Assembly (NCBI GenBank): GCA_004295055.1
Contig: SHNJ01000010.1
Location: 2,136 to 66,135, forward strand
DNA length: 64,000 nt
Source of the DNA: Alphaproteobacteria bacterium
GTDB lineage: Bacteria; Pseudomonadota; Alphaproteobacteria; SHNJ01
Direction of reading: 5' to 3'
A program made the position numbers and the translations under genes. Below the pieces are notes generated by a model, which made no database searches, had not been told where the DNA came from, and was given only the letters and a program-made list of their open reading frames with translations. Below, one piece after another: positions 1,448 to 56,547 of the stretch; within the stretch, counting starts at the first letter, position 1, and each line of letters starts with the position of its first letter.

Positions 1448-4330
1448 GTGATAGGGGCAGAAACTATGGTAAAATTACTACGCCGGGATTCAAAATCCCA
1501 GGCCGGATACATTATGGGCGCCGTTTTGGCGGCTGTTGTGGGAATTGGCATCGCCACCACCGTCATGATGACCACGGCCACTAATTCGGCAAAAATCTCT
1601 CAAACCATTACGGCGCGATCGATCACCAATTCGACCATGTCCGGCATTTCCAGCAGCCTGGCTAGAACCGGCCGCATCACCAACGGAAATATTTTGAATC
1701 CGCGCTATGCCGTTACAGATAGTGAAGGCCATACCCCACCTGGCGGCGGCGGTTACGTTCCAGCCGAATTCGGCAGCCAAGTCGATGGCACCGGCAACAA
1801 AATCATATATTGCGCCTTTCATAACGGACCAAACGCCCCGGAAGCGACCGATGGCGAAGAAGTTCCGCCAATTGTATTGCCGGGCAATAATCGCAATACC
1901 CGCGAAGAAATGCCGCGCGCGCCAGCCTATGTTTTAATTGCCCCAAAAGGCGCGCAAGATTTAACCTGCGACAATACGACAGTTACCGAAAATACCGCCT
2001 ATGGCACCTATACCCGTTTGAAAACGGACACTGAAATGCGTGAAGTTGCGGGCAACGACAGTTACAAAGCGGCGGATATCACCACTTTCATCAATGATAA
2101 CGGCCAGGGCGCAGCCAATTTGGTTGGCGGCGAAATTTGCGATTGGAGAACGCAGAAATTGATCTTCGATCGCCTGCCGGACGGCACCACGGAATTCAAC
2201 TGCGTGCCGGAACAAGACCCATTGGTCGAAGGCCGCACCGTTGGTTCGGCCGGCGATGCCGGCAATGTGCCGGCCAATACCGCCCGGGTTTTTAAAGAAA
2301 GCTATAAAGAACCGCATCGCCAAGACGCTTCGGATCCAGATTCGCCGATCAGCGAATTGCGTTTCCGTTCGATCGTGGCTGGCAACAATGTATCGGTTGT
2401 TCAAGACGGTGATAATATCCGTATCAGTTCAAGCGCATCGAGCGGCGGTACCATTACCGGCGGTCAAAACGTCGGCGCTGGCGCTGGCATTTACAAAGAC
2501 ACTACCGGTTCTTTGATGAATTTCCGCAGCTTGGTTTCGGGCGGCGGGATTATTATTCAACCTTTCGGCGATTCCGTTTTAATCACCAACACCGGATCGA
2601 CGGCGGATTTGAACGGAGCCAATATCGGCGATGGCACCGGCGCAGCCGTGGAAACACCATTGGCCGAAGTGTTCAAAGATAAAACCGTTGTCGGCAATAC
2701 CACCTATTTAAACTTCCGTAAAATCAAAGCCGCAGGCACGGTCAGCTTGCAACAACTGGGCACGGACACGATCCAAATCACCGGTTCGGCCATTCCTGGC
2801 CCACAAGGTCCGCAAGGCCCTCCCGGCTCGAACGGCCCACAAGGTCCTCCCGGCCCTCCTGGTCCGCAAGGCCCTCCTGGATCCGGCAGCTGGACTGTGG
2901 TTGGCGACAATCAATACAGCTCGAACGCCGGTAACGTCGGCATCGGCACCTCCACTCCCGGTCAAAAACTGACCGTTGCTGGAAATATCTATGCCGAAGG
3001 CAGCATTCGCGGATCTTATTTTGTACTGGCTTCGAATACCAATCCAACCCAGCATCGCATGGATATGTATCCTGTCAATCCGACGGGCGGCATCGAACAT
3101 GTGGAAACCCAGGATCCGTATGACAATAACAATGCGGCCAATACCAACAACTTGTTTTACTTTTACAACGTTGGTTTAGGCCGCCATGCGCGTATCGGCG
3201 TTGAAAAAGTCTATGCTTATGACGGTATCGCAACCAAGCACAATGGCGTCGATATCAACTATTTCAACGGCCATACTTTCCAGCGCGGGTTTAAATTATA
3301 CGCAACCACTACTGGAACGCAGGAAGGCAATTTCCGCTTGATGGCAAAAACCAGCCGCATGGGCGTATTGCATTCCGCCAATACTTTTGCGTTTACCACG
3401 CGGGGCGACAATAAATTCGCCGATATCCGCGTGGGCGCCGTTGGTATTATGGGCGATAACTGGAATCATCAAATGGCAATCATGCCGTTTGCGGGTGGCG
3501 AAGCGATTGAAACCGCTCCTGGCGGCAATCCAGCCATGAACAACAATAATTTGTTCTGGCTGTTTAACCAGCCGTTAGGCCGCCATGCGCGTTTGGGCGT
3601 AGAAAAACTTTATGCGTATGACGGTATCGCGACCAAGCATAATGGTGTCGATATCAACTATTTCCCAACCACTGGCGATACCAACCAGTTCCGCCGCGGT
3701 TTCCGCCTGTATGCGGTACCGGACAACGGTTCGTCGGATGGCGATTTCCGCATTGAATTGAAAGCGCCGCGTTATGGCCCAATGGATCAACGCAATACTG
3801 TTGCGTTGAAAACCAATGATGGCAATTACGCCGATCTGCGCGTTGGCAATTTGACCGTAACCGGTACGATCACCGGCGGCGGTGGTGGCGGTGGCGGCAG
3901 CAGCTTCCAAGGCGTTACCTTGGGCAGTGAAGTTGCCAATACTTTGACCCGCAACGATGGCGGTGGACAAGGTATTTATAACCAAACCAGCTCGACCAAC
4001 ATGCCAATCAAGCCAGGCGATGCAACCATGTTAAAAGTGACCGCACGCTGCTTTGCCGGCGCCAAAGGCGACAAACCGGCGAATCTTGCCGGTAAAATTT
4101 ACATGAAACGCGCTGATAACAGCGTAATCATGGAATTCGTGCCTTGCCGCGGTTTCTATGCCCCGGAACGGGATGGAACTATTGGTTTTGGCAGCGGCAG
4201 CAACGATGCCGAACCGCAAACCATGATGTACCCAATTCCGACCGCCACTTCCTATGTAACTTTGGAATCCAAAGTTTATTCGGCAAAATGGCAGGCGCAA
4301 GTGGATGTACGCGCTACTTATATGAAGTAA
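1448..4330 (+). CDS. 960-aa membrane-anchored repeat protein. It has an N-terminal TM helix, a collagen-like Gly-X-Y tract ([31 protein letters not shown]), two tandem copies of the ~100-aa [18 protein letters not shown] module, and a poly-Gly run. It is a paralogue of the upstream gene.
   Basis: Intact 2883-nt ORF. A single hydrophobic segment ([17 protein letters not shown]) lies near the N-terminus. The (GPX)n tract is at about nt 2795-2885. Module copies lie at aa ~560-650 and ~690-800. GGGGGGGG is at nt ~3880-3905. A strong terminator lies downstream. Confidence 0.7.
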
Positions 4331-4344
4331 GTGGCATTTATTTG

Positions 4345-4372
4345 AAAAACCCGGCTTCGGCCGGGTTTTTTA
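4345..4372 (+). terminator. Rho-independent terminator (cccggcttcggccggg followed by ttttttat).
   Basis: Perfect GC-rich hairpin followed by a T-run, 15 nt after the stop codon. Confidence 0.8.
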
Positions 4373-4505
4373 TGGACGTAAAGGAACAAATAATGACGGC
4401 AATTTATCCCCGTATAAAGGATACCAAACAACTTCTGGGCTTGACGTTACAGCCATTGTTGCGTACATCCGTAACCTTAGCTCTACAATTAAATAGGACT
4501 TTATC

Positions 4506-6767: not shown

Positions 6768-9700
6768 ATGCCAAAACGTACAGACATTAAATCCATCTTA
6801 ATCATCGGCGCGGGTCCGATTATCATCGGCCAGGCGTGCGAATTCGATTATTCCGGCGCGCAAGCATGCAAGGCGTTACGCGCCGAAGGATACCGCGTGA
6901 TTTTGGTTAATTCCAATCCCGCTACTATCATGACCGATCCTGAAATGGCAGATGCGACTTATATTGAACCGATCACGCCGGAATTTGTCGAACGCGTGAT
7001 CGCCAAAGAAAAACCGGATGCGTTATTGCCTACCATGGGCGGACAAACCGCATTGAATACCGCCGTTGCATTGGCGGAATCCGGCATTCTGGAAAAATAT
7101 GATGTCGAGTTGATCGGCGCGCAACTGGGCCCGATTAAAAAAGCCGAGGACCGCGAATTGTTCCGCGACGCGATGACCAAAATCGGTTTGGAATCGCCGA
7201 AAAGCCGCATGGCCAATTCCATGCAGCAGGCAATCGAACATTTGGAATATGTCGGATTGCCTGCGATCATCCGTCCATCTTTTACCCTTGGCGGCACTGG
7301 CGGCGGCATCGCATACAACAAACAAGAATTTATGGACATTGTCGAAAGCGCGCTGCGCGCTTCGCCGACCCATTCCGCGCTGATCGAAGAATCTGTTCTA
7401 GGTTGGAAAGAATTCGAAATGGAAGTCGTGCGCGACAAGGCCGACAATTCCATCATCATTTGTTCGATTGAAAATATCGATCCGATGGGCGTGCATACTG
7501 GCGATTCGATCACTGTTGCCCCTGCCCTGACGCTGACGGATAAAGAATATCAAATTATGCGCAACGCATCGATCGCGGTATTGCGTGAAATCGGCGTTGA
7601 AACCGGCGGATCGAACGTGCAGTTTGCGATCAATCCCGATAATGGCCGCATGGTCGTTATTGAAATGAACCCACGCGTATCGCGCTCGTCGGCTCTGGCA
7701 TCCAAGGCGACTGGATTCCCGATTGCCAAAATCGCCGCGAAATTGGCGGTTGGATACACGCTGGATGAATTGAAAAACGACATTACCCAGGTCACACCCG
7801 CATCGTTCGAACCGACCATCGATTACGTCGTTACCAAAATCCCGAGATTCGCCTTTGAAAAATTCCCAGGTACCAAGCCGTTATTGACCACCGCGATGAA
7901 ATCGGTTGGCGAAGTGATGGCGATTGGCCGGTGTTTCGCCGAGTCCTTGCAAAAAGGTTTGCGAGGCATTGAAACCGGTTTAACGGGATTAAACGAAATT
8001 GAAATTCCAAATTCCGACAACGGCCAAAACCGCGAGGCGATTGCCGCCGCGCTGTCGACCGCGACGCCAGACCGTTTATTGCTGGTCGCGCAAGCGTTTC
8101 GTTACGGCTGGAGCATTGACGAAGTATACGAACGCTGCTTCATCGACAAATGGTTCTTGCAACAAATCAAGGATCTTGTGGATATCGAAAACAGCATCCG
8201 CAAAAAAGGATTGGACAAGGACGCTGGCGAAATCGCCCGTTTGAAACGGCTGGGTTTCAGCGATGCGCGTTTGGCGGAATTATTAAAAATTCCGGAAGAC
8301 AAATTCCGCAAAATCCGCACCCAGTTGGGCGTTAAGCCCGTTTATAAACGCATCGACACCTGCGCCGCCGAATTTGCATCGAACACCAAATATATGTATT
8401 CGACGTATGAAGGCAATGGATATTCCGCCCCGGTATGTGAATCTGACATTAGCGATAAGCGCAAAGTGATTATTCTGGGCGGCGGTCCGAACCGCATCGG
8501 CCAAGGGATTGAATTCGATTATTGCTGCGTTCACGCCGCCTATGCCTTGCGCGAGACCGGCATTGAAACCATCATGGTTAATTGCAACCCAGAAACCGTA
8601 TCAACCGATTACGACACATCCGACCGGTTATATTTCGAACCGTTGACCGCCGAGGACGTGATCGCGATTGCGCACAAGGAAATGGAAAGCGGCCAATTGC
8701 TGGGCACGATCGTGCAATATGGCGGCCAAACGCCGTTGAAATTGGCGCATGCACTATCCGAAGCCGGAATTCCGATTTTGGGAACATCGGTCGATGCCAT
8801 CGATTTGGCCGAAGACCGCGAACGTTTCCAAAAATTGATTCACGATTTGAAGCTGAAACAGCCGAACAACGGCACGGCGACAAATCTTGAAACCGCCGAA
8901 AAAGTCGCGGAAAAAGTGGGTTTCCCATTGGTCATCCGTCCGTCTTATGTTTTGGGCGGCCGCGCGATGGAAATCGTCGGCGATATGGAAGGTTTGCGCC
9001 GGTATATGTCCAAGGCCGTGCAAGTATCGGGCAAAAATCCGGTATTGCTGGATTCGTTCCTGCGCGACGCGATTGAAATCGACGTCGACGTTATTTGCGA
9101 TGGAACGGACACATATGTCGCAGGTGTCATGGAGCATATTGAGGAAGCCGGGATTCATTCCGGCGATTCTGCCTGTTCCCTGCCCCCATATTCGCTGGAT
9201 GCGGAAACCATTGCCGAGCTTGAAAAACAAGCGTCCGATATGGCAAAGGCCTTGGGCGTTGTCGGGTTGATGAACGTGCAATTCGCGATCCAAGGCAATG
9301 ATATATATGTATTGGAAGTCAACCCGCGCGCATCCCGCACCGTGCCGTTTGTCGCAAAGGCCGTCGGATTGCCGGTTGCAAAAATCGCCGCGCGCGTCAT
9401 GGCTGGCGAGAAATTGCCGTCATTCAATTTAAAACCGATTCAATTGAACCACGTTGCGGTGAAAGAACCCGTGTTCCCATTCAACCGTTTTGCGGGGGTC
9501 GACGTATTGTTAGGGCCAGAAATGAAATCGACCGGCGAGGTCATGGGCATCGATCAAGATTTCGCCCGTGCTTTTGCCAAGGCGATGATTGGCGCATCGG
9601 CGAAATTGCCATTAAAAGGCACGGTGTTTATTTCAGTGAAAAATTCCGACAAACAAACCATGGTGGAACCGGCGCGTCATATGTCGAGCATGGGATTCAC

Positions 9701-10019
9701 CATCATGGCCACGCGCGGCACCGCGAGTTTCCTGCGCCAGAATGGTATTCCAGTGGTTGCGGTGAATAAAGTGTTAGAAGGTCGTCCGCATATTGTGGAT
9801 GCGATTATCGACGGCAAAGTGAATTTGATTTTCAACACCACCGCCGGAAACCAGTCGATCACCGATTCGTTCAGCATCCGCCGCACCGCGTTACAGCAAG
9901 GCGTGCCTTGCTTTACCACCGTGTCGGCCATCTGGGCAACGGTTGCGGCGATTGCCGCGCTGCGCAAAGGTCCGCTTGGCGTGGAATCCATTCAGTCTTA
10001 TTTTAAGAAAGCCGCATAA
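6768..10019 (+). CDS. carB: Carbamoyl-phosphate synthase large subunit.
   Basis: 1083 aa with the two ATP-grasp halves, the oligomerisation domain and the C-terminal MGS-like domain. The N-terminus [30 protein letters not shown] is canonical. Confidence 0.95.
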
Positions 10020-10025
10020 TCGCAA

Positions 10026-11714
10026 TTAGCGCGACTTTTCATGCACAATATAGCGCGCGCTTAATTGAAGGCGGACGGGATTGTCATCGACTTTAAGCGG
10101 AAATATAAGGGCTATTCCCGCTTCAGCTTTGTTGCGATCAAAAACCCTTTGCTCATCCCTGGTTAAATCTGCGCGCAAGGCCTCTAACGGTTGTCTTGGA
10201 ACGCCCTTATATTCATAAGCTGCTGTGGTTAGCATATCAATGCGATTGCGAGTGGGAGAACCTTCGGCAAATTGATTGCCAGCATCCCTTAAAGCTTCTA
10301 CATAATATAGCCGCCAATCAAAGAATCCAACCACCGTTACTGGGTATGCCCGTTGAGGTTGTTTAAGCACGGGCGACACCAGGTCCTCGCCCGAATTTGT
10401 TGTCAATACATCCGCATATAGAGCTTTAGGAGATTGCTTAACTTGCGCCGATACTTTTTCATCCGTTGTTTTCTTAATATTTGCAAGATCTTTTGCAACG
10501 GCTTCTTGCTGTGAAAAATCTTCTCTATATTGTTGCACCGCAGGAACTACAAATTTCTGAAAAAGCGTTTTTGGCGTAATTGGACCGCTATTGCTCTCGG
10601 GCGATAAAAAATCCCTCAACAATTTCGCATCATTTTCCAACAATCGGGATAAAATCGCCGCTGAATCGTAACTTCGTTCTGATGGCTGTAGCACGCTAAG
10701 ATTAAGAAAATCGTTCCAAGTTGCTTCGGCTAAATATTCCCTGGCCTTTTGCAAATCGCGGCGCCATTCCTGCGAATCAGCGCCATGGTTTTGATATGAA
10801 ATCTGCAAAAACCGAGCCACTGCATATGTTTCGGCCCGTTGTTCCGATACATCATCCGATTTATTCTGGGCCGCAGTGCTGGTATTGCCTAAATAATCAT
10901 GACGATGGCCATCTTCGTGCAAAGCAACAAGAACGGAACGATCATAGTCTGTTAATTGCGGAACAAAATTATTGTAAAATACATGATCAACATAAGAATT
11001 TTTGTATTCTTGAACAGAAGTGTATCCAAGGGTGAATAAAGAATTATGCGGAGACAATACCGTGCTTGTATTCATCGCTTCCAGCCAACTGTAAACAATG
11101 CGATTTTCTTCCGCGCCGGTTACTTGATACAAAACGGATGCGTAACTTGTGGTGTTAGTTGTTTGGTTGGCTGCGCCATTCTGAACATCAACATGTATTC
11201 TTGGCCGCATATCCTGCATTAAGAAATAATCTTCGGTGGAGCGATAATCGGCAAAAACATAAACATAATTAGGTTGAACGTCTCTACGGGCGTCGCTAAG
11301 CGCTAGGCGTATATTTCTATAATCATCGGAATTACCGAAACGTAAATATTCCGGTATAAAAGAATCGCGGTAAATAACTGCTGTTGTCGCGCTATACCCC
11401 ACAAAAGCGACTTGATTTTCTTGCCGCAGGAATTCAACGAATTGCCGATCGGACGTTGATAACGATTGCGATCCAAGAATAACATGCGCTGCATTCTTGG
11501 ACGGTTCCGCAGGGGTCGGTTGTGGAGAATCCGCAATTACAGAATTTGACGGTTCAGCAACCGGTGCTGAAGATTGCGTTATGCTTGTCGATGAAGATAT
11601 GGCGATATCGGATAAAGGTTGCGCCGGTTTTTGGACAGCGGTGGCCAATGCCATTAGGCCCAGAGTCATGCCCCAAGCGTATGGAAAATTTGGCCTTTTT
11701 ACAGTTTTTTGCAT
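10026..11714 (-). CDS. Secreted 562-aa hypothetical protein with a signal peptide and an HEDGH (HExxH-like) motif. It may be a Zn-metallopeptidase-like protein.
   Basis: The N-terminus MQKTVKRPNFPYAWGMTLGLMALATA looks like a signal peptide. The motif ALHEDGHRHD lies in mid-protein. No other recognisable family was seen. Confidence 0.55.
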   Translation of the reverse strand: MQKTVKRPNFPYAWGMTLGLMALATAVQKPAQPLSDIAISSSTSITQSSAPVAEPSNSVIADSPQPTPAEPSKNAAHVILGSQSLSTSDRQFVEFLRQENQVAFVGYSATTAVIYRDSFIPEYLRFGNSDDYRNIRLALSDARRDVQPNYVYVFADYRSTEDYFLMQDMRPRIHVDVQNGAANQTTNTTSYASVLYQVTGAEENRIVYSWLEAMNTSTVLSPHNSLFTLGYTSVQEYKNSYVDHVFYNNFVPQLTDYDRSVLVALHEDGHRHDYLGNTSTAAQNKSDDVSEQRAETYAVARFLQISYQNHGADSQEWRRDLQKAREYLAEATWNDFLNLSVLQPSERSYDSAAILSRLLENDAKLLRDFLSPESNSGPITPKTLFQKFVVPAVQQYREDFSQQEAVAKDLANIKKTTDEKVSAQVKQSPKALYADVLTTNSGEDLVSPVLKQPQRAYPVTVVGFFDWRLYYVEALRDAGNQFAEGSPTRNRIDMLTTAAYEYKGVPRQPLEALRADLTRDEQRVFDRNKAEAGIALIFPLKVDDNPVRLQLSARYIVHEKSR

Positions 11715-15577: not shown

Positions 15578-16564
15578 ATGAACATGACGGCGGCTAAAAA
15601 ACCTCTAAAACATTCAAAACTATTGATTATTGGCGGTGGCCCTGCGGGGTACACAGCGGCAATCTATGCGGCGCGCGCAGCCCTCGGGCCAGTTTTAGTC
15701 ACGGGTCTTCAACCAGGCGGCCAATTGATGACCACAACCGATGTAGAAAATTATCCCGGCTTTGCCCACGCCGTACAGGGTCCGCAATTGATGGAACAAA
15801 TGTACGAACAGGCCAAAAATGTCGGCACTGAAATTATTACCGACCATATCGCCAGCGTCGATTTTAAATCAAAGCCCTTTACCGCCCACGGAGACGAACA
15901 TACCTATACTGCGGACGCCGTGATCATTTGCACGGGCGCTCAGGCCAAATGGCTGGGCATAGAATCGGAAATGCATTTCCGCGGTTACGGCGTTTCGGGC
16001 TGCGCCACATGTGACGGATTCTTTTTCAAAAATAAAACCGTGGCTATTGTCGGCGGCGGCAACACCGCCATGGAAGAGGCGTTATATCTGACCCACCACG
16101 CCAAGGAAGTAATCATGATTCACCGCCGGGATCAATTCCGCGGCGAGAAAATTTTACAACAACGCATCGCGCAAAATCCAAAAATTAAAGTAATTTGGAA
16201 CAGCGCCGTCGATGCCGTTTTAGGCACAGATAATCCAAAGTCGGTGAATGGATTGACGTTGGTAGACAACAAAACCGGCAAAAAGCAAAATGTTGCCGTC
16301 GATGGATTATTCGTTGCCATCGGCCATGCGCCAGCAACCGAATTATTCAAAGGCCAAATCGATCTGGATAATGACGGGTATATTAAAACGGCTCCCGGTA
16401 CCGTAAAAACCAATATTCCAGGCGTCTACGCCGCCGGCGATGTTATCGATAAAATCTATCGCCAGGCTGTGACCGCCGCCGGTCTTGGATGCATGGCGGC
16501 GCTGGATGCCGAAAAATATCTAAGCCATCAATCGCAAACAACGGTGCCCGCCGCCGCGGAATAG
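15578..16564 (+). CDS. trxB: Thioredoxin-disulfide reductase.
   Basis: FAD-binding GGGPAGYTAA, redox-active CATCDGFF (CxxC) and NADPH-binding GGGNTAMEEA motifs are present. Confidence 0.92.
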   Translation: MNMTAAKKPLKHSKLLIIGGGPAGYTAAIYAARAALGPVLVTGLQPGGQLMTTTDVENYPGFAHAVQGPQLMEQMYEQAKNVGTEIITDHIASVDFKSKPFTAHGDEHTYTADAVIICTGAQAKWLGIESEMHFRGYGVSGCATCDGFFFKNKTVAIVGGGNTAMEEALYLTHHAKEVIMIHRRDQFRGEKILQQRIAQNPKIKVIWNSAVDAVLGTDNPKSVNGLTLVDNKTGKKQNVAVDGLFVAIGHAPATELFKGQIDLDNDGYIKTAPGTVKTNIPGVYAAGDVIDKIYRQAVTAAGLGCMAALDAEKYLSHQSQTTVPAAAE

Positions 16565-16570
16565 GATTTT

Positions 16571-17488
16571 ATGCCAATCAAATCGTCTAATACGTTAGAT
16601 TGGAACCGCCTGAAAATTTTTCACATGGTGGCCGAGGCCGGCAGTTTTACCGAAGCAGGACGCCGGTTACGCCTTAGCCAATCCGCCGTCAGCCGGCAAG
16701 TCAGCGCATTGGAAAAAAGCCTTAGCAATGTTCAATTATTTCACCGCCATGCGCGGGGACTTGCCTTAACCGAACATGGCCAGGCCTTGTTTGAAACGGC
16801 TCAGGAACTTGTGTCTAAATTATCGGCGACGCAAGGCTTGTTGATGGAACAGAAAGACAAAGCCGCAGGCACATTGCGAATTGCCGCGACTATTGGCATG
16901 GGCACAACCTGGCTTTCGTCCAGAATCGGTTTATTTTGCCAACGCTATCCCGAAATTAATCTGGAATTGCGCCTAAGCGATTATCCGGTCGATTTAACCC
17001 GGGCAGAAGCCGATGTCGCCATTCAGATGACCGCGCCCAACCAGCCGGGATTGGTACAGCGCCCGTTTGCCACCATCAACCTGGCGCCTTATGCATCCGA
17101 GGAATATATTCGTAACTATGGCATGCCTCAGCATCCAAAAGATTTGGATAAGCATATTTTAATTGTCTATGGACCGACAACTCCGGCCTTGTTCAATGAC
17201 GCCAATTGGCTTTTGTCGTTAGGCCGCGAAGATGAAGGCGTGCGGCACCCGCGCGTTTATATCAACAGCAATTTAGGCATGTTGAATGCCTGCGCAGGCG
17301 GCGCTGGCATTGCATCCTTGCCAAATTATTTGGCAGCGGAAAGACCAAATTTGATTTGCGTGCTGTCTGGAATTGAAGGGCCAAAAATACCAACCTATTA
17401 CGTCTATCCAGAAGCCTTGAGAAATTCTAAAAGAATTCATGTCTTACGAGAGTTTTTATTAGAGCAAGCGAGCCTTACAGAATTTTAA
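16571..17488 (+). CDS. LysR-family transcriptional regulator.
   Basis: N-terminal HTH_1 (LKIFHMVAEAGSFTEAGRRLRLSQSAVSRQVSALEKSL) followed by a LysR substrate-binding domain. Confidence 0.85.
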   Translation: MPIKSSNTLDWNRLKIFHMVAEAGSFTEAGRRLRLSQSAVSRQVSALEKSLSNVQLFHRHARGLALTEHGQALFETAQELVSKLSATQGLLMEQKDKAAGTLRIAATIGMGTTWLSSRIGLFCQRYPEINLELRLSDYPVDLTRAEADVAIQMTAPNQPGLVQRPFATINLAPYASEEYIRNYGMPQHPKDLDKHILIVYGPTTPALFNDANWLLSLGREDEGVRHPRVYINSNLGMLNACAGGAGIASLPNYLAAERPNLICVLSGIEGPKIPTYYVYPEALRNSKRIHVLREFLLEQASLTEF

Positions 17489-17559
17489 GATATTGATATA
17501 TAATAATTTTATCTATGCGTTTAACGCATGGGCATCCCTTGAATTTAGCTATTTTAAAT

Positions 17560-17735
17560 ATAACAAATTATACATATAACTGTGGTCGATAGTTGTTGTT
17601 CGAAAGGACAATTGGCTTAACTGTCAACCAGACTCCGGTCTGGAGAGTGGGTATCGCTAGATCCCGCTCACATGTCTAGAAGACATGAAGCCTCCCTGTT
17701 CAACTCGCCGGGCTTTGACCCGGCAGTTTTTTTTC
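17560..17735 (+). ncRNA. Candidate structured leader or small RNA. It has three hairpins (ccagac-tccg-gtctgg, catgtct-aga-agacatg, gccgggctttgacccggc) and ends in an intrinsic terminator 13 nt before the start codon of the next gene. It could be an attenuator or riboswitch-like element, or an independent sRNA.
   Basis: Direct observation of the hairpins and of the T8 run at 17727-17734. The terminator sits immediately upstream of the RBS and ATG at 17748. No match to a known RNA family could be made by eye. Confidence 0.3.
17704..17734 (+). terminator. Rho-independent terminator (cgccgggc-tttga-cccggcag followed by tttttttt).
   Basis: GC stem followed by T8. Confidence 0.75.
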
Positions 17736-17747
17736 TAGGGGTTATGA

Positions 17748-18602
17748 ATGCCTCGTCCGGCTCCTCGCGAACAACAAATTTTTAGCGCTTTACGCGAAAC
17801 TTCTTCAACGGATGCTGATCGCGCCAACAAAATTTTCGGGATAATCAAAAGAGACCCTTTACCGCTCAAAACATTTTTTCAAAAAACGGTTTGCAGAGAA
17901 AGCGGAATATCAGAGCAAGAGAGAGAAATTTTATGTTCTGCTATATTGCTATATGTGGAATATATCGGTTCTTTTCCACTTGGCCATACCAGTGCGCCTA
18001 AATATGGCCTGCGCATAGAATCGGACCGTCCAGTGCAAACTGCATCATGGGCGGTAATAGCCCTGCGCAATTCCGAAAAGCAGGAACAGCAGATAAAAGC
18101 AGCACAGATTATTTTGGCGGGCGCAGAAAAGCTGATAGCACCCGTTGCACCAAACACCCCGATCACAACCGATACTCTTAATTTAAAATTGGCAATGAGC
18201 CTTTATTTAGCGGTCACAAATAATACTCCGCCAGAAGAACAATATTATTATTTAGGCATACATAATTTCCGGCGGGTGGCAGAAACCATGTTACAGCAAA
18301 GCCGCACGGATTTCGCCACGACTATGGTTGAATTAAGCCATGGTTGCGATAACAATCCAGCGGCACTGGAATTGGCGACTGAATATTTGCAACGCGCGGT
18401 TCATCACATCATCACAGGAAATCCAGAAACGGCATTGGGTATTATTCCCCAATTACGCGACCGCAATCAAGCGATGCGGCATGAAAGAACATCTTTCCGC
18501 ACCCCACCATCGGATAGTATAGATTTGCAATTAAGCGCTTTAGAAATGTTGGCAACCGCTGTTGTGCAGCACCGGCAGGCTGCAAGCCGTACACCGCGTT
18601 AA
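17748..18602 (+). CDS. 284-aa hypothetical protein.
   Basis: Intact ORF with an RBS-like aggggtt 8 nt upstream. No family was recognised. Confidence 0.5.
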   Translation: MPRPAPREQQIFSALRETSSTDADRANKIFGIIKRDPLPLKTFFQKTVCRESGISEQEREILCSAILLYVEYIGSFPLGHTSAPKYGLRIESDRPVQTASWAVIALRNSEKQEQQIKAAQIILAGAEKLIAPVAPNTPITTDTLNLKLAMSLYLAVTNNTPPEEQYYYLGIHNFRRVAETMLQQSRTDFATTMVELSHGCDNNPAALELATEYLQRAVHHIITGNPETALGIIPQLRDRNQAMRHERTSFRTPPSDSIDLQLSALEMLATAVVQHRQAASRTPR

Positions 18603-52004: not shown

Positions 52005-52281
52005 AACAATGCTCGATTGCCGCTGGACCTAAATACGATACCGCGGCAACCAACCCAATGGTCGATCGCCCAGTTAAATGGATCCAATCCGCAAGACCAC
52101 TGCCAACAAAACCCATAAATATTGCTACAGGCAGCTCCAACAGCAAATGTACGCCCCAAAACTGCCGCAAGCCTTTTTGTACTAAAAGAACATGCTTTGC
52201 TAATCTTCCTATAAAAGCTGCGCTGAGGGCAGCTGCGAAACTAGTCAAAGTTTCGCGGACAGTGTCTATGTCAAAAATCAT
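51970..52281 (-). CDS. Putative holin (103 aa, 2-3 TM helices) immediately upstream of the endolysin.
   Basis: Hydrophobic helices. Its position overlaps the start of the endolysin by 35 nt. Confidence 0.45.
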   Translation of the reverse strand: MIFDIDTVRETLTSFAAALSAAFIGRLAKHVLLVQKGLRQFWGVHLLLELPVAIFMGFVGSGLADWIHLTGRSTIGLVAAVSYLGPAAIEHCYAKYMWNNKTE

Positions 52282-53144
52282 AGAAATCCAAACAGACTGC
52301 TGCCTAAATTGGCGATCGATTGTAAAGACTGACGCTGTTGCGCCAAGCGGTTATTATAAGAATTCAATTGCCCTGCGTAATTATTGTTAATTGTCCCAAG
52401 CACATCCACGCCAGGAGTTTGAATGCCGCCATAAAACTGGCTTGGTGTAAATTGCTGTCCGCCTAACAAACTGGCCAACTCCTGCAGCATGCTAGACCTT
52501 GCAGAATTGTTCAGGCCCAAGGATTGCAGTTGATCATTAACCTGAGCTTGGCGCGCGGCCATGGCATTGGCAAACAAGCGCTGCTGTTCTGCACGCCCAG
52601 CCGCAACGGCATCTTGTGCCGCCGATTGCAAGGTTTCATTTTCATTGTCAGTTAAAGCATCAAATTCCTTGCCATATGCGTCAGACCCCATAGGAATGCC
52701 TTGATTAACCAAATCATTTTCTCTTTTAGTGCGGCGCTTTTCAAATTCCGGTCGCAGCAAATTGGCGATTTTATTGTAAGTGGCATCTTCTACTTGCTTC
52801 GCATCGCGTGAAAAGTCATCAATTGTTGGAATGCGGTTTATACCAGAAAAATCGATAGAACTCTGAATTTTAGGCAAGTTCAAATTACCTCCGCCTAATA
52901 AGTTTGCTAACTGCAATGAAAGCTGTTCGCTTACTTCGCGGCTTCTTTTCTGATAGGGACTTTCCAACAATTGCACTGCATTATGATCATAATCTGGCAT
53001 GAAATTACCGCCCGCATCATATTGACCGTACAGCAAACTGCCGCCCCCTGGAAAGAATTGATTTAATCTATTGACCTGCGCTTGTGCTTCTGCCGACTGC
53101 ATCGGATCAGGTGCCGCCGGTGCCTTTGGTGCTTTTTTGCCCAT
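52278..53144 (-). CDS. 288-aa phage protein with Gln/Ala/Gly-rich low complexity (possible internal virion or ejection protein).
   Basis: Intact ORF within the structural block. The composition is like pilot or internal-core proteins. No family was recognised. Confidence 0.45.
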   Translation of the reverse strand: MGKKAPKAPAAPDPMQSAEAQAQVNRLNQFFPGGGSLLYGQYDAGGNFMPDYDHNAVQLLESPYQKRSREVSEQLSLQLANLLGGGNLNLPKIQSSIDFSGINRIPTIDDFSRDAKQVEDATYNKIANLLRPEFEKRRTKRENDLVNQGIPMGSDAYGKEFDALTDNENETLQSAAQDAVAAGRAEQQRLFANAMAARQAQVNDQLQSLGLNNSARSSMLQELASLLGGQQFTPSQFYGGIQTPGVDVLGTINNNYAGQLNSYNNRLAQQRQSLQSIANLGSSLFGFL

Positions 53145-53156
53145 ATTAATCCTTAT

Positions 53157-53576
53157 TTAGTTTTTGTTTATCCAAATACATTCAGACTTAATCATGCCGA
53201 AAACTAGTGCAGCTTCATTGCCATACCATTGCCGCAATACGCCTTCCTGCTTAAATCCTAATCTTTTTAAAAAATCTATAGCTTCACTATTATTTTCCCG
53301 CGTTTGCGCAGTTATTCGTTGACATTGCAACTGCAAGAATGGGTATGAAAATATTTTTCCTAGAATTTTTCTACTAGCCCAGTACGGCGAAATAGATGCA
53401 ATAGTTGCCTGAATATCTGTGCCGTAATAATGATTGAATATTACTCCAGCAATTAATTTATCGTCATCAATTATGCCAATAGTGCTGCATGGGCCAAAAT
53501 CGTCGACATCTGGTTGCAATAGATTTATTGCAAATTTAGCGACTAAACTGTCGGCTCCATACAATATTTTCCGCAT
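53157..53576 (-). CDS. GNAT-family N-acetyltransferase (139 aa) embedded in the phage tail region (moron).
   Basis: A GNAT-fold pattern (acetyl-CoA binding region Q/R-x-x-G-x-G/A-like: RITAQTRENNSEAIDFLKRLGF) and a typical length are present. It sits between tail-fibre and internal-protein genes. Confidence 0.55.
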   Translation of the reverse strand: MRKILYGADSLVAKFAINLLQPDVDDFGPCSTIGIIDDDKLIAGVIFNHYYGTDIQATIASISPYWASRKILGKIFSYPFLQLQCQRITAQTRENNSEAIDFLKRLGFKQEGVLRQWYGNEAALVFGMIKSECIWINKN

Positions 53577-53582
53577 TATTTT

Positions 53583-54002
53583 CTAGCTAACAACAATAGA
53601 CACATAATCATATTGGATTCTGTATGCAAAAGTTGCGGCGGATGCCGCTCCGGCATTTTTGCAAGTCACGGCCAGCGATAACGCGGTATTCGGTCCGCAC
53701 TTGAATACGCCTGACGCCGCGGAACGTTCGTTTGTTCCATCGATTTGAATACCCACAGCGGATCCCGTACTGCCGGAACTGGAATATCCCAGTGCCCCGG
53801 GAATCGTAATTGCCGCGTGGTTTAAATTATTGGTTGATGCGGTAGATGCGGTAACTTGGTAATTTACAATAAATATGGCATTTGCTGTGTTGGGTGTGGT
53901 GAAGACACTGATCCCGCCGCTGCCAATACCATTGGCCGTAGAAACTGAATTTGTAAAAGTTCCGGTAACCACGTTTGAAGAACCGGCTGTTGTAATTGGC
54001 AT
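53583..54002 (-). CDS. 139-aa Gly/Ser/Thr/Ala-rich phage tail-fibre-associated protein.
   Basis: The composition is typical of fibre tips. It lies adjacent to the tail fibre gene. Confidence 0.45.
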   Translation of the reverse strand: MPITTAGSSNVVTGTFTNSVSTANGIGSGGISVFTTPNTANAIFIVNYQVTASTASTNNLNHAAITIPGALGYSSSGSTGSAVGIQIDGTNERSAASGVFKCGPNTALSLAVTCKNAGAASAATFAYRIQYDYVSIVVS

Positions 54003-54011
54003 TACTATCTC

Positions 54012-55010
54012 CTAAATTTGCAATAATGAAAAAATTAATGCGGATTCATCCGCATGTTGGCGTGTTGCCATAGGCGATGATGTAAAACTGGCTACCCCGC
54101 CTGTCGTAAAACTCAATCCTGCTCCTGCTGTGGAAGGCAATGCATTAGGCATCGTCAAATCAAAACTGGCCGTAATACTGTCAGGTGCCTTTACACGAAC
54201 AACTTGTACGCCATTAGCCGCCAGTTCTTGCAATTGAATGCGACCGGCATCTCCCGGATTAATTCCAATTGAGCCAAAGGTGGAACCTGGCGATTGCCAG
54301 GTCAGTAATCCCGTTCCATCATTCGTCAAAGTTGTACCGGCACTGCCCTGAATATTCGGTAAAGTAACCGAATAACCGGTACCGATTGCATCTGGTGCAC
54401 GAAAAGTAATCTGTTCCGTTCCATTTGTGGCCAATTCTTTCAGTCGAATAGCGCCAGCTTGACCAGCCCCTACACCATCCGGTGCAAAAGTTTTGTTGCT
54501 AATATCTTGCATGGCGCTATCCAAAATTATAGTTCCGGAACTATCCGGAATAACAACGGTTCTGGCCGCAGAAAGACTTTGCGGCTGCAACACCGATTCA
54601 TAACCGCTGTTTTTAAAAGCAGCACCGGAGGATTCTCTGATAATTTGCGTACCGTCTTGTAAAACTACATTACCACTGTAATCCGGTAACGTATAAGTAC
54701 GGGTTGCAGTCAATGGGCCGGTCTGTAAATCACCATAATTTGTGGCTCCATTAAATAATCTTACCCCACCAGAGACGAAGGCTTGCAGCCACCGCAAACT
54801 GGCGGATCCAAGATTATAAGTTGCATCCACATGAGGTTTAAAGTCCGCTGTCGGCTTGCTTTCATTATTTTTGGTCAAGCAAGCCTGAATCCCTGCGGCC
54901 AAATTGTCATCTTCCTGATCGTGCAGCGAAGCTACAATTTTAATTCCATTATTCTTGTCTGTTACCCAATTTCGTAAGCGCGTGTATATACCGCTGCCAT
55001 TCCAAGGCAT
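54012..55010 (-). CDS. Phage tail fibre protein (332 aa).
   Basis: Repetitive Gly-rich beta-type sequence (TFRAPDAIGTGYSVTLP... / VKAPDSITASFDLTMP internal repeat). It lies downstream of the tail tubular genes. Confidence 0.6.
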   Translation of the reverse strand: MPWNGSGIYTRLRNWVTDKNNGIKIVASLHDQEDDNLAAGIQACLTKNNESKPTADFKPHVDATYNLGSASLRWLQAFVSGGVRLFNGATNYGDLQTGPLTATRTYTLPDYSGNVVLQDGTQIIRESSGAAFKNSGYESVLQPQSLSAARTVVIPDSSGTIILDSAMQDISNKTFAPDGVGAGQAGAIRLKELATNGTEQITFRAPDAIGTGYSVTLPNIQGSAGTTLTNDGTGLLTWQSPGSTFGSIGINPGDAGRIQLQELAANGVQVVRVKAPDSITASFDLTMPNALPSTAGAGLSFTTGGVASFTSSPMATRQHADESALIFSLLQI

Positions 55011-55035
55011 TCTAATCTCCTAATTTTACCGATGT

Positions 55036-56547
55036 TTATACGTATCCAGCTGGTTCGAACAAATATTCGAGACTGAACCATTTACAGGACTGCTGACCTA
55101 AAGCGGCGATTACCCGAGTAGATACATTAAGCCCAATTCCGGCGACCGATACCCATGGGCGGATTATCGTATTTTCGCCTGCCCAGGCACTAAGATCCCA
55201 AGGACTATTATCCCATTCCGGCGCATTGCCGGAAAAATTGGATACACTATAAGTTGCGGCCGGGGTTTCAAAATCAAATGCCAGCGCAAGCGAAATTGGT
55301 AAGGCCCCTTCACTTTCAAAAACCGGTTTCAACGCCGTAAATCGTTTAATTTGTCCACGAGAGTTTAAATAATTCCATGCAGTCTGTGCGGAAAATGTAA
55401 TGGGATTGCCGTTATCGTTATGTCCTTCATCTGCCAAGTACACATTCCCGTCTATGCCTCCAAAATATAATTTATCATTATACAGGGACCAGCATATTCC
55501 ATTTAGACCTTCGAATTTGGTCCATGTATTGGTCAGAGTATTAAAAATATGCTGATCGAATCGCGTTTCCGATACTGGCACATTAAATAGTAAATAATTG
55601 CCCTGCGGATACATCAAAGCCTGCCAACCAAAATTACCGGCATATAAATTGGCCGCTTCTTTGACTGCGCCATTAATTTTATCGGAAATGGCACGGGCAC
55701 TGGCAGCGCGCCCGGCATCCAACACTTTAGATAACGGCACATATCCATCTTTGGTCATTACCACTACTTCAGAGCCTACCTTTAAGGCTCCGCGGGAAGA
55801 TAGCGGTGCGCCAAGGCGGAAAATACCGACCAACGCCCAGTCGGCAGCCGAACCAGGATCGCTGCCTTGATAAATTATTACATCCCCGCTCGACATAATG
55901 AAAATGGCCAGATCATCTACACCGTCCCCGCCATCCACAGTCCAAGATTGAATTGCAATCAAATTCCCGCCAAATCCGGAAACACGGCCTAGTGGAAATT
56001 TATTTAAACTGCCGCCTAGCGCACCAGTGGCGCTGTACCAGAAATCCTGGCTGTCTTTTTCCCAAAAATAGGATCGATTTTTAAATGTAAATACGCCAAT
56101 CAAATTATTGATGGTCAAATCTGTGCCTGAAACTGTCAAGGCAGAAACTGCCATTCCATCATACATTTGTGGCGGATCAATACCATTGACTAGCGCCATT
56201 CGTGCACCGCCACTGGCATCGTCAAATTGCGAAAATGACCAGCGATCATTTTGAAATCCACTGGCAAGGGCGATACCAACCGCGCCGGGTGTGGAAATAT
56301 CGTAAATAGCATTATTGCTAGCGGCGATAAACTTGCGCGATGCTCCGGCATTAAATTCCGCTAATGTTTCCACTGGTCCAGGCATATCCGATGCATAAGT
56401 CACATACCCTTTGCGGGTTTGCACCCGGCCAACAGTTGGAAACCAATTGGTTAATATCACCGCATCTTCCGGAGGCATTTGATCCAAAGCGTCTCGCGTG
56501 TTCCACCCGCCAACAGGAGACACTATTTGTATTGCTTTTGCTGTCAT
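55036..56547 (-). CDS. Phage tail protein (503 aa), podovirus tail tubular protein B-like.
   Basis: Its size and its position after a ~200-aa tubular-A-like gene match the podovirus arrangement. Beta-rich sequence. Confidence 0.55.
   Translation of the reverse strand: MTAKAIQIVSPVGGWNTRDALDQMPPEDAVILTNWFPTVGRVQTRKGYVTYASDMPGPVETLAEFNAGASRKFIAASNNAIYDISTPGAVGIALASGFQNDRWSFSQFDDASGGARMALVNGIDPPQMYDGMAVSALTVSGTDLTINNLIGVFTFKNRSYFWEKDSQDFWYSATGALGGSLNKFPLGRVSGFGGNLIAIQSWTVDGGDGVDDLAIFIMSSGDVIIYQGSDPGSAADWALVGIFRLGAPLSSRGALKVGSEVVVMTKDGYVPLSKVLDAGRAASARAISDKINGAVKEAANLYAGNFGWQALMYPQGNYLLFNVPVSETRFDQHIFNTLTNTWTKFEGLNGICWSLYNDKLYFGGIDGNVYLADEGHNDNGNPITFSAQTAWNYLNSRGQIKRFTALKPVFESEGALPISLALAFDFETPAATYSVSNFSGNAPEWDNSPWDLSAWAGENTIIRPWVSVAGIGLNVSTRVIAALGQQSCKWFSLEYLFEPAGYV

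Follow-up and report, generated by a model that had tools for sequence, protein, structure and literature searches.

A probable small RNA gene adjoining an LsrB/VtlR ortholog in an alphaproteobacterial genome

A structured spacer downstream of a LysR-type regulator gene

We analyzed a 64,000-nt stretch of an alphaproteobacterial genome (contig SHNJ01000010.1; the whole stretch is called the window below, and positions follow its numbering). The subject is the spacer between the stop codon of a gene for a LysR-type regulator and the ATG at 17748 of a hypothetical gene (i.e., 17489 to 17747). The genes at this locus occur in the order lrp/asnC (minus strand), trxB, the LysR gene 6 nt further on, the spacer, and a gene that varies among related loci (Table 1). 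A preliminary description of the spacer had reported a palindrome, a structured region, and a terminator close to the start codon, and it had proposed a riboswitch or attenuator or, alternatively, the 3' end of an independent small RNA (sRNA). The evidence favors the last of these. We consider it likely that positions 17515 to 17734 form a self-contained gene for a trans-acting sRNA in the regulon of the adjoining regulator, an ortholog of LsrB/VtlR.

The region folds far more stably than expected from its composition. The minimum free energy (MFE) of positions 17575 to 17740 is -67.3 kcal/mol, while shuffled sequences gave -45.6 ± 4.4 kcal/mol (z = -5.0), and none of 200 shuffles was as good. 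The structured region reported earlier is therefore real, although it comprises five stem-loops ahead of the terminator (P1/P2, P3, P4, and P5) and not three hairpins. The same architecture was found in the single-sequence folds of all eight members of the clade set (i.e., eight distinct sequences, the window and seven relatives, with LysR proteins 69 to 88% identical): P1 closing P2 with an internal loop UGGCUU, followed by P3, P4, P5, an unpaired AAGCCUCCCUGUUCAAC, and the terminator. Within this clade, the mean column identity of the spacer RNA is about 76%, and the changes are concentrated in stems and loops.

Since a plain MAFFT alignment with RNAalifold lost P3 and P4 through misaligned indels, a covariance model (R1) was built with a hand-written structure, and the homologs were then realigned to it. 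R1 has a single match in the window (17588 to 17733; 164 bits). In the R1-fitted alignment, 98.8% of the cells are paired (slid controls, 28 to 41%) and 15 of the 42 base pairs show double changes; none of 500 shuffles reached these values. Covariation and conservation of the hairpins among relatives, both of which the preliminary description had put forward as checks, were thus obtained. The compensatory changes are located in P1 to P4 (two of seven pairs in P1 and five of seven in P2; Table 1). The length and sequence of P2 vary in every lineage while its pairing is always kept, and P3 has an A-U pair in the window where a related locus (L001) has G-C. The stems of P5 and of the terminator are invariant within the clade, with variable loops. 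Between clades, the P5 stem changes from CAUGUC/GACAUG to CACGUC/GACGUG (i.e., one U-A to C-G double change), and the P5 loop of the G+C-rich relatives reads CUCCCA.

The most conserved segment of the RNA is the unpaired seed, which is single stranded in the MFE folds of all eight sequences. It is followed by a canonical intrinsic terminator with a stem of six G-C pairs (GCCGGG/CCCGGC; 17707 to 17724), a 6-nt loop (CTTTGA), AG, and eight T residues (17727 to 17734). As first described, this terminator ends exactly 13 nt (17735 to 17747) before the ATG, and the 13 nt include a Shine-Dalgarno-like run, AGGGG.

Two further observations concern the 5' part of the RNA. The internal-loop stretch UGGCUUAAC (17613 to 17621), which leads from P2 into the 3' strand of P1, hardly varies in the clade (GGCU.AAC) and is absent from the G+C-rich relatives; a second functional site at this place is conceivable. 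In addition, AACTGT, which overlaps the -10 element and the discriminator within a hairpin at 17576 to 17596, repeats the 3' strand of P1 and could pair with GAUAGUU only in transcripts reading through from the LysR gene. We rejected this hairpin as a switch competing with P1: although the window, L001, L045, and L049 share it, L048, L070, and L099 do not.

TABLE 1 Positions of the sRNA gene, its parts, and the flanking genes in the window
Feature	Position	Strand	Remarks
Predicted sRNA gene, ~147 nt	17588..17734	+	5' end predicted; 3' end given by the terminator U-run
P1 (17588-17594 with 17619-17625) enclosing P2 (17595-17612, GAAA loop) and internal loop UGGCUU (17613-17618)	17588..17625	+	
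Hairpin P3, CCAGAC UCCG GUCUGG	17628..17643	+	3 of 6 pairs with compensatory changes
Hairpin P4, GAGUGGG-U-AUC GCUA GAU CCCGCUC	17645..17669	+	5 of 10 pairs with compensatory changes
Hairpin P5, CAUGUCU AGA AGACAUG	17671..17687	+	Stem invariant and loop variable within the clade
Single-stranded seed AAGCCUCCCUGUUCAACUC (CCUCCC at 17691-17696)	17688..17706	+	Putative anti-Shine-Dalgarno pairing region
Intrinsic terminator GCCGGG CUUUGA CCCGGC AG UUUUUUUU	17707..17734	+	Terminator scan; stem invariant and loop variable among relatives
Dyad ATGCGTTTAACGCAT (core ATGC-N7-GCAT), putative LsrB/VtlR operator	17515..17529	.	Center at about -65/-66 from the predicted start
Putative promoter: weak -35 TTTTAA (17552-17557), 17-nt spacer, -10 TATAAC (17575-17580)	17552..17580	+	Proposed from conservation only
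LysR-type regulator, LsrB/VtlR ortholog	16571..17488	+	Pfam HTH_1 and LysR_substrate; presumed activator of the sRNA promoter
trxB (thioredoxin-disulfide reductase)	15578..16564	+	TIGR01292, 407 bits (cutoff, 343); context only
Variable hypothetical gene (284 aa)	17748..18602	+	Neighbor outside the conserved element; start 13 nt past the terminator

Conservation and genomic position of the RNA

We scanned metagenome contigs for the exact 27-nt stretch spanning the seed and terminator (GAAGCCTCCCTGTTCAACTYGCCGGGC). It was found in 69 loci whose LysR proteins are only 40 to 51% identical to that of the window. In 50 of the 58 informative loci (i.e., those with enough upstream DNA), the motif lies 187 to 430 nt 3' of a LysR ortholog on the same strand, and trxB precedes the LysR gene wherever the sequence allows. 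The trxB-LysR-RNA order also holds in the eight clade sequences, and trxB is the first gene of a conserved trxB-LysR-sRNA module. A scan of genome contigs with the LysR protein gave a single close relative. Slightly diverged versions of the RNA, retaining the core CCUCCCUGU, occupy the same place in metagenome-assembled genomes of Thalassobaculaceae, Stellaceae, and Rhodospirillaceae. The window itself contains no second copy of the RNA or of the seed. The RNA family is widespread in alphaproteobacteria and is uncatalogued in public RNA libraries.

In L050, L058, L087, and L110, as well as in L073/L079, a shorter form of the RNA (~100 nt) is found with the same dyad (ATGCGGTTTTTGCAT) and promoter but without a LysR gene nearby. 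These copies look like unlinked paralogs in the same regulon, a situation resembling that of abcR1 on Brucella chromosome II.

In L106, L084, and L100, partial copies that begin within the P5 loop and contain only the 3' part of the sRNA were observed beside divergent P4-type tyrosine integrases (domains Arm-DNA-bind_3, Phage_int_M, and Phage_integrase). In L106 (oriented), copy A (~14 to 127), which has a substitute terminator, and copy B (10153 to 10282) are about 10 kb apart, with the integrase gene at 8836 to 10068 on the minus strand. Integrative elements thus appear to use the 3' end of the sRNA gene for attachment, in the manner known for tRNA and transfer-messenger RNA genes.

The regulator and its putative operator and promoter

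Among solved structures, the best match of the window LysR protein is 9hh1 (262 bits; E = 7e-77; the next LysR-type transcriptional regulator [LTTR] scored 97 bits), to which its aligned N-terminal helix-turn-helix region is closely similar. The cysteines of 9hh1 are C144, C236, C244, and C273. Since Agrobacterium tumefaciens LsrB is described with this same set (PMC11975290) and since NCBI gives the name VtlR to a protein 95% identical to 9hh1, we take 9hh1 to be A. tumefaciens LsrB. On the basis of the structure match and the linkage to trxB, the window protein, which is closest to LsrB among LTTRs and is encoded just after trxB (6-nt gap), is assigned as an LsrB/VtlR ortholog. Experiments in Agrobacterium, Brucella, and Sinorhizobium have established both the trxB-vtlR-abcR arrangement and the fact that VtlR/LsrB directly activates abcR1 (PMC7486931, PMC8844928).

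Upstream of the RNA lies the 15-bp perfect palindrome that the preliminary description had reported at 17517 to 17531. It exists as described (ATGCGTT-T-AACGCAT; 7-bp arms and one central base), but it is located 2 nt upstream, at 17515 to 17529. A palindrome of this kind is by itself within chance, with nine 7+1+7 palindromes in the window against 3.7 ± 2.1 in shuffles; likewise, the window contains three ATGC-N7-GCAT sites against 3.6 expected. We take it as real solely because it is conserved at a fixed position in related loci. A perfect ATGC-N7-GCAT, one per locus, is present 5' of the RNA in 54 of the 59 distinct informative loci, where 0.007 per locus would be expected; two of the other five have a dyad with one mismatch, and three are the integrase-adjacent partial copies. 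Conservation is limited to the outer 4 to 5 bp of each arm while the center varies freely, a pattern that points to a protein-binding site rather than an RNA hairpin. The earlier reading of the palindrome as a LysR-box-like T-N11-A dyad is supported by the preservation of ATGC-N7-GCAT about 55 nt 5' of the -10 element. The other two ATGC-N7-GCAT sites of the window (29056 and 53642) were rejected as operators, being inside open reading frames (ORFs) and at a chance-level count.

The -10-like element stands in a fixed register about 55 nt 3' of the dyad. Within the clade, the -10 element (TATAAC, TATAAT, TATAGT, or TATAAG) and a TTTTCA-like -35 element are conserved, and distant G+C-rich lineages carry a CTATCT-like -10 element in the same alignment columns. 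In a Sinorhizobium locus (L124), the same dyad is centered at -65 from the 5' end of the ar15 (AbcR1) RNA, with GCAT at -61, and the LsrB box of the LsrB-dependent abcR1 promoter of Sinorhizobium meliloti lies at -61 to -49 (PMC8844928). Applied to the window, the spacing of L124 predicts a transcription start at 17587/17588 (i.e., 7 to 8 nt past the -10 element), which places the window GCAT at -61. The published VtlR box (GCAT-N3-TG-N3-T) shares GCAT with the dyad (PMC7486931, PMC8844928). The TG-N3-T half of the box is unmatched from the GCAT of the dyad, and the nearest box match in the window is GCATCCCTTGAAT, which starts from a second GCAT 6 nt downstream. We regard the dyad as a putative LsrB/VtlR operator.

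A working model can be formulated from these elements. The LysR regulator would bind the dyad, centered about 65 nt 5' of the start, and would activate a weak sigma-70-type promoter. Transcription from about 17588 to the U-run of the terminator would yield an RNA of about 147 nt, which would fold into P1/P2, P3, P4, and P5 and leave AAGCCUCCCUGUUCAAC single stranded just 5' of the terminator hairpin. This C-rich stretch would mimic an anti-Shine-Dalgarno sequence; by base pairing at the ribosome-binding sites of its targets, probably with the help of Hfq, the RNA would make these mRNAs less stable or less well translated. The proposed mode of pairing is drawn by analogy from AbcR1/2, SorX, and SorY, for which pairing of a C-rich seed with Shine-Dalgarno regions has been described (PMC8844928 and PMC5461406 for AbcR1/2, PMC9438474 for SorX, and PMC4615379 for SorY). 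An unpaired seed beside a terminator with a U-tail also fits the architecture of Hfq-dependent sRNAs; no hfq gene was found within the window.

Relation to known RNA families

At Rfam gathering thresholds, neither the window nor any of 17 related loci gave a match to the RNA, and the Rfam scan that the preliminary description had suggested returned no riboswitch or leader family. The only gathering-level match among the 17 loci was a terC RNA (RF03067; 53 bits) at 626 to 680 of L063, which is unrelated to the RNA described here.

Below these thresholds, each family member tested matched SorX (RF02784) better than any other Rfam family (27 to 40 bits). The window RNA matches the full-length SorX model at 17661 to 17731 with 37.0 bits (E = 5.5e-7), whereas the gathering score is 46.6. 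SorY (RF02651) scores 19.6 bits against a gathering score of 111, and SorY and BjrC1505 are weak matches through the core CCUCCCUG. The likeness to SorX and SorY resides in a 3' module consisting of AUCCC, a hairpin, (A)CCUCCCUGUU, 6 to 7 nt, and a GCCGGGC...GCCCGGC terminator; in the alignment to the SorX consensus, CCUCCCUGUU is the single strand between the hairpin and the GCCGGGC-type terminator. SorX and SorY of Rhodobacter/Cereibacter sphaeroides, two sRNAs of the oxidative-stress response, depend on Hfq and repress transporter mRNAs (PMC9438474, PMC4615379), and the Hfq-dependent pairing of SorY with takP involves a region predicted to include the CCUCCCUGUU core (PMC4615379). SorX is cut from the 3' untranslated region (UTR) of ompR-1 (RSP_0847) and is driven by the promoter of that gene (PMC6238624, PMC8625941), whereas the window RNA follows a LysR gene, is preceded by its own dyad and predicted promoter, and has about 75 extra 5' nucleotides (i.e., P1 to P4).

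With AbcR1/AbcR2, the window RNA shares its genomic position: the same module of divergent lrp, trxB, and lsrB/vtlR is followed by an sRNA on the same strand (PMC7486931). The two systems are also alike in a GCAT-containing upstream dyad centered near -65 and in a terminator-ended sRNA with exposed C-rich anti-Shine-Dalgarno motifs. The AbcR M1 hexamer is CUCCCA (PMC5461406), which the G+C-rich relatives of the window RNA carry in the P5 hairpin loop; in the window, neither M1 (CUCCCA; first-hairpin loop) nor M2 (GUUCCC; between hairpins) occurs in 17588 to 17734. No sequence or structure homology between the families was detectable with either model. In a search over 176 nt with relaxed filters, the ar15 model (RF02345; gathering score, 40 bits) had no hit on the window RNA at E <= 10, while it scored 75 to 117 bits on the Rhizobiaceae controls (L123 to L125), in which ar15 (AbcR) RNAs lie 3' of vtlR on the same strand; R1 had no match on these controls. 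The window RNA further differs in length (147 nt versus 110 to 120 nt), in the number of stem-loops before the terminator (five versus two), and in occurring as a single copy rather than in tandem. In one of the controls (L125, Hoeflea sp. G2-23; 3546 to 4418), four tandem ar15 copies follow vtlR, instead of the usual two.

The window RNA thus occupies the AbcR slot, with the upstream control region of AbcR, and yet belongs to a different sequence family, whose seed-terminator module is that of SorX/SorY. The OxyR-OxyS pair of enterobacteria is another case in which the gene of a redox-linked LysR-type regulator lies beside an sRNA gene that the regulator activates directly (cf. a remark in PMC11975290). 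OxyS, however, is transcribed divergently from oxyR, has no sequence relationship to the window RNA, and does not mimic an anti-Shine-Dalgarno sequence. The likeness of the window module to this pair is one of logic only.

Origin of the RNA and its independence from the downstream gene

Several points weigh against a dedicated gene for a trans-acting sRNA. The RNA fails the curated cutoffs of both of its nearest Rfam families, and a comparison of the seed with the start regions of the ORFs in the window gave only weak or spurious matches on doubtful ORFs, none of them convincing. The covariation alignment was fitted to the structure of the model and hence favors that structure, so that the independent support comes from the single-sequence folds. 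In the window LysR protein, valine stands in place of each of the two conserved redox cysteines (C144 and C273), and only the equivalent of C236 is retained; thiol-based sensing as described for Agrobacterium LsrB may accordingly not apply to it. The -35 element matches the consensus at only three of six positions, and a strict consensus promoter scan found no plus-strand promoter in the spacer, a result that is expected if the promoter is activator dependent. That the RNA exists, and where its promoter and transcription start lie, is predicted from sequence. Finally, no terminator was found between the LysR stop codon (17488) and the RNA, so that read-through of the trxB-LysR transcript could supply some or all of it.

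This last point leads to the best surviving alternative, namely, that the RNA lacks its own promoter and is released from the trxB-LysR mRNA by RNases, as SorX is from ompR-1, with the dyad serving another purpose. An operon transcript must cross the RNA, given that no terminator precedes 17707, and the promoter scan called nothing here. Moreover, the 3' 71 nt (17661 to 17731) cover the whole of the 73-position SorX model in the alignment, from AUCCC onward, and the 75-nt mature form of SorX arises by RNase E cleavage of a 116-nt precursor (PMC6238624, PMC9438474). However, the register of dyad and -10 element is fixed across lineages whose LysR proteins are only 40 to 51% identical, and it equals that of the abcR1 promoter, whose dependence on LsrB is experimental (PMC8844928). 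Copies of the dyad plus RNA that lie away from any LysR gene (L058, L087, and L110) cannot be a LysR 3' UTR. We therefore regard processing from the mRNA as an unlikely sole origin, although the two routes are not mutually exclusive; besides transcription of a self-contained sRNA gene, read-through from trxB-LysR and SorX-like processing are possible additional routes.

The preliminary description had given first place to a cis-acting leader (i.e., a region that senses a ligand or the state of translation and whose terminator attenuates transcription into the gene at 17748). The 13 nt between the terminator and the ATG leave no room for a separate promoter, so that this gene probably needs read-through, and homologs of it begin directly past the terminator in L001 and L046. 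Nevertheless, the RNA is kept 3' of the LysR gene whatever comes next. It persists with no codirectional gene in L045 and L048/L070, where a convergent gene ends just past the terminator. Across 64 loci, the downstream ORFs (crude calls) fall into 30 unrelated clusters, and 34 of the 64 are convergent. Between the window and L001, the gene at 17748 has diverged to 24% identity, while the RNA is still about 95% identical and the flanking genes are 85 to 98% identical. For the window and the seven relatives alike, neither MFE nor centroid folds contain an antiterminator pairing that competes with the terminator stem, Rfam offers no riboswitch or leader match, and the most conserved segment is an unpaired seed and not a ligand pocket. 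A leader function is thus highly improbable. Read-through of the sRNA terminator may still allow expression of the gene at 17748, but this would be a trait of the clade of the window and not the reason for the conservation of the element.

A structured 3' end without a trans role, which only terminates and stabilizes the trxB-LysR mRNA or is conserved as an attachment site, can claim that this is the only terminator after the operon and that the 3' part serves as an integration site elsewhere, but it has very little probability, since it leaves unexplained the 27-nt identity of unpaired seed plus stem across distant lineages, the four covarying upstream helices, and the conserved operator and promoter, and since attachment sites exploit conserved genes and do not create conservation.

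Neighboring genes and other features of the window

The slot directly 3' of the sRNA is hypervariable. The 284-aa protein encoded there in the window has no Pfam or NCBIfam match; L045 and L048/L070 lack its gene, and in L049 and L099 the slot is taken by other short ORFs. A 37-aa ORF at 17672 to 17785 was dismissed because it runs across the terminator. Farther away (~52278 to 56547, minus strand), repetitive tail-fiber-like ORFs rich in glycine, serine, and threonine, together with a small ORF resembling an acetyltransferase, point to a region of possible phage origin; one of these ORFs contains the ATGC-N7-GCAT site at 53642.

Implications

A wider reading of these data can be offered tentatively, as a possibility that we rate below an even chance. 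An old, uncatalogued alphaproteobacterial sRNA family might be the general partner of LsrB/VtlR outside the Rhizobiales, with ar15/AbcR as a replacement or a much-diverged form in the Rhizobiales and with SorX and SorY as relocated derivatives of the seed-terminator module. The sRNA gene would double as an attachment site for integrase islands, and the clade of the window would have been rewired, having lost both redox cysteines and the CUCCCA loop.

For genome annotation, the locus carries the warning that a terminator just 5' of a start codon need not signal attenuation. The family defined here comprises more than 60 distinct sequences and is open to curation. If the sRNA gene is as proposed, the LsrB/VtlR operator would be refined to the dyad ATGC-N7-GCAT, which would be usable for regulon prediction, and a common seed-terminator module would connect the AbcR locus with SorX and SorY, the stress sRNAs of Rhodobacter. 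The trxB-lsrB/vtlR-sRNA circuit, which has been studied only in pathogens and symbionts of the Rhizobiales, would extend to distant and mostly uncultured Alphaproteobacteria with a different RNA. It would thereby provide a handle on how an sRNA is exchanged while the regulator, the operator, and the genomic slot stay fixed.

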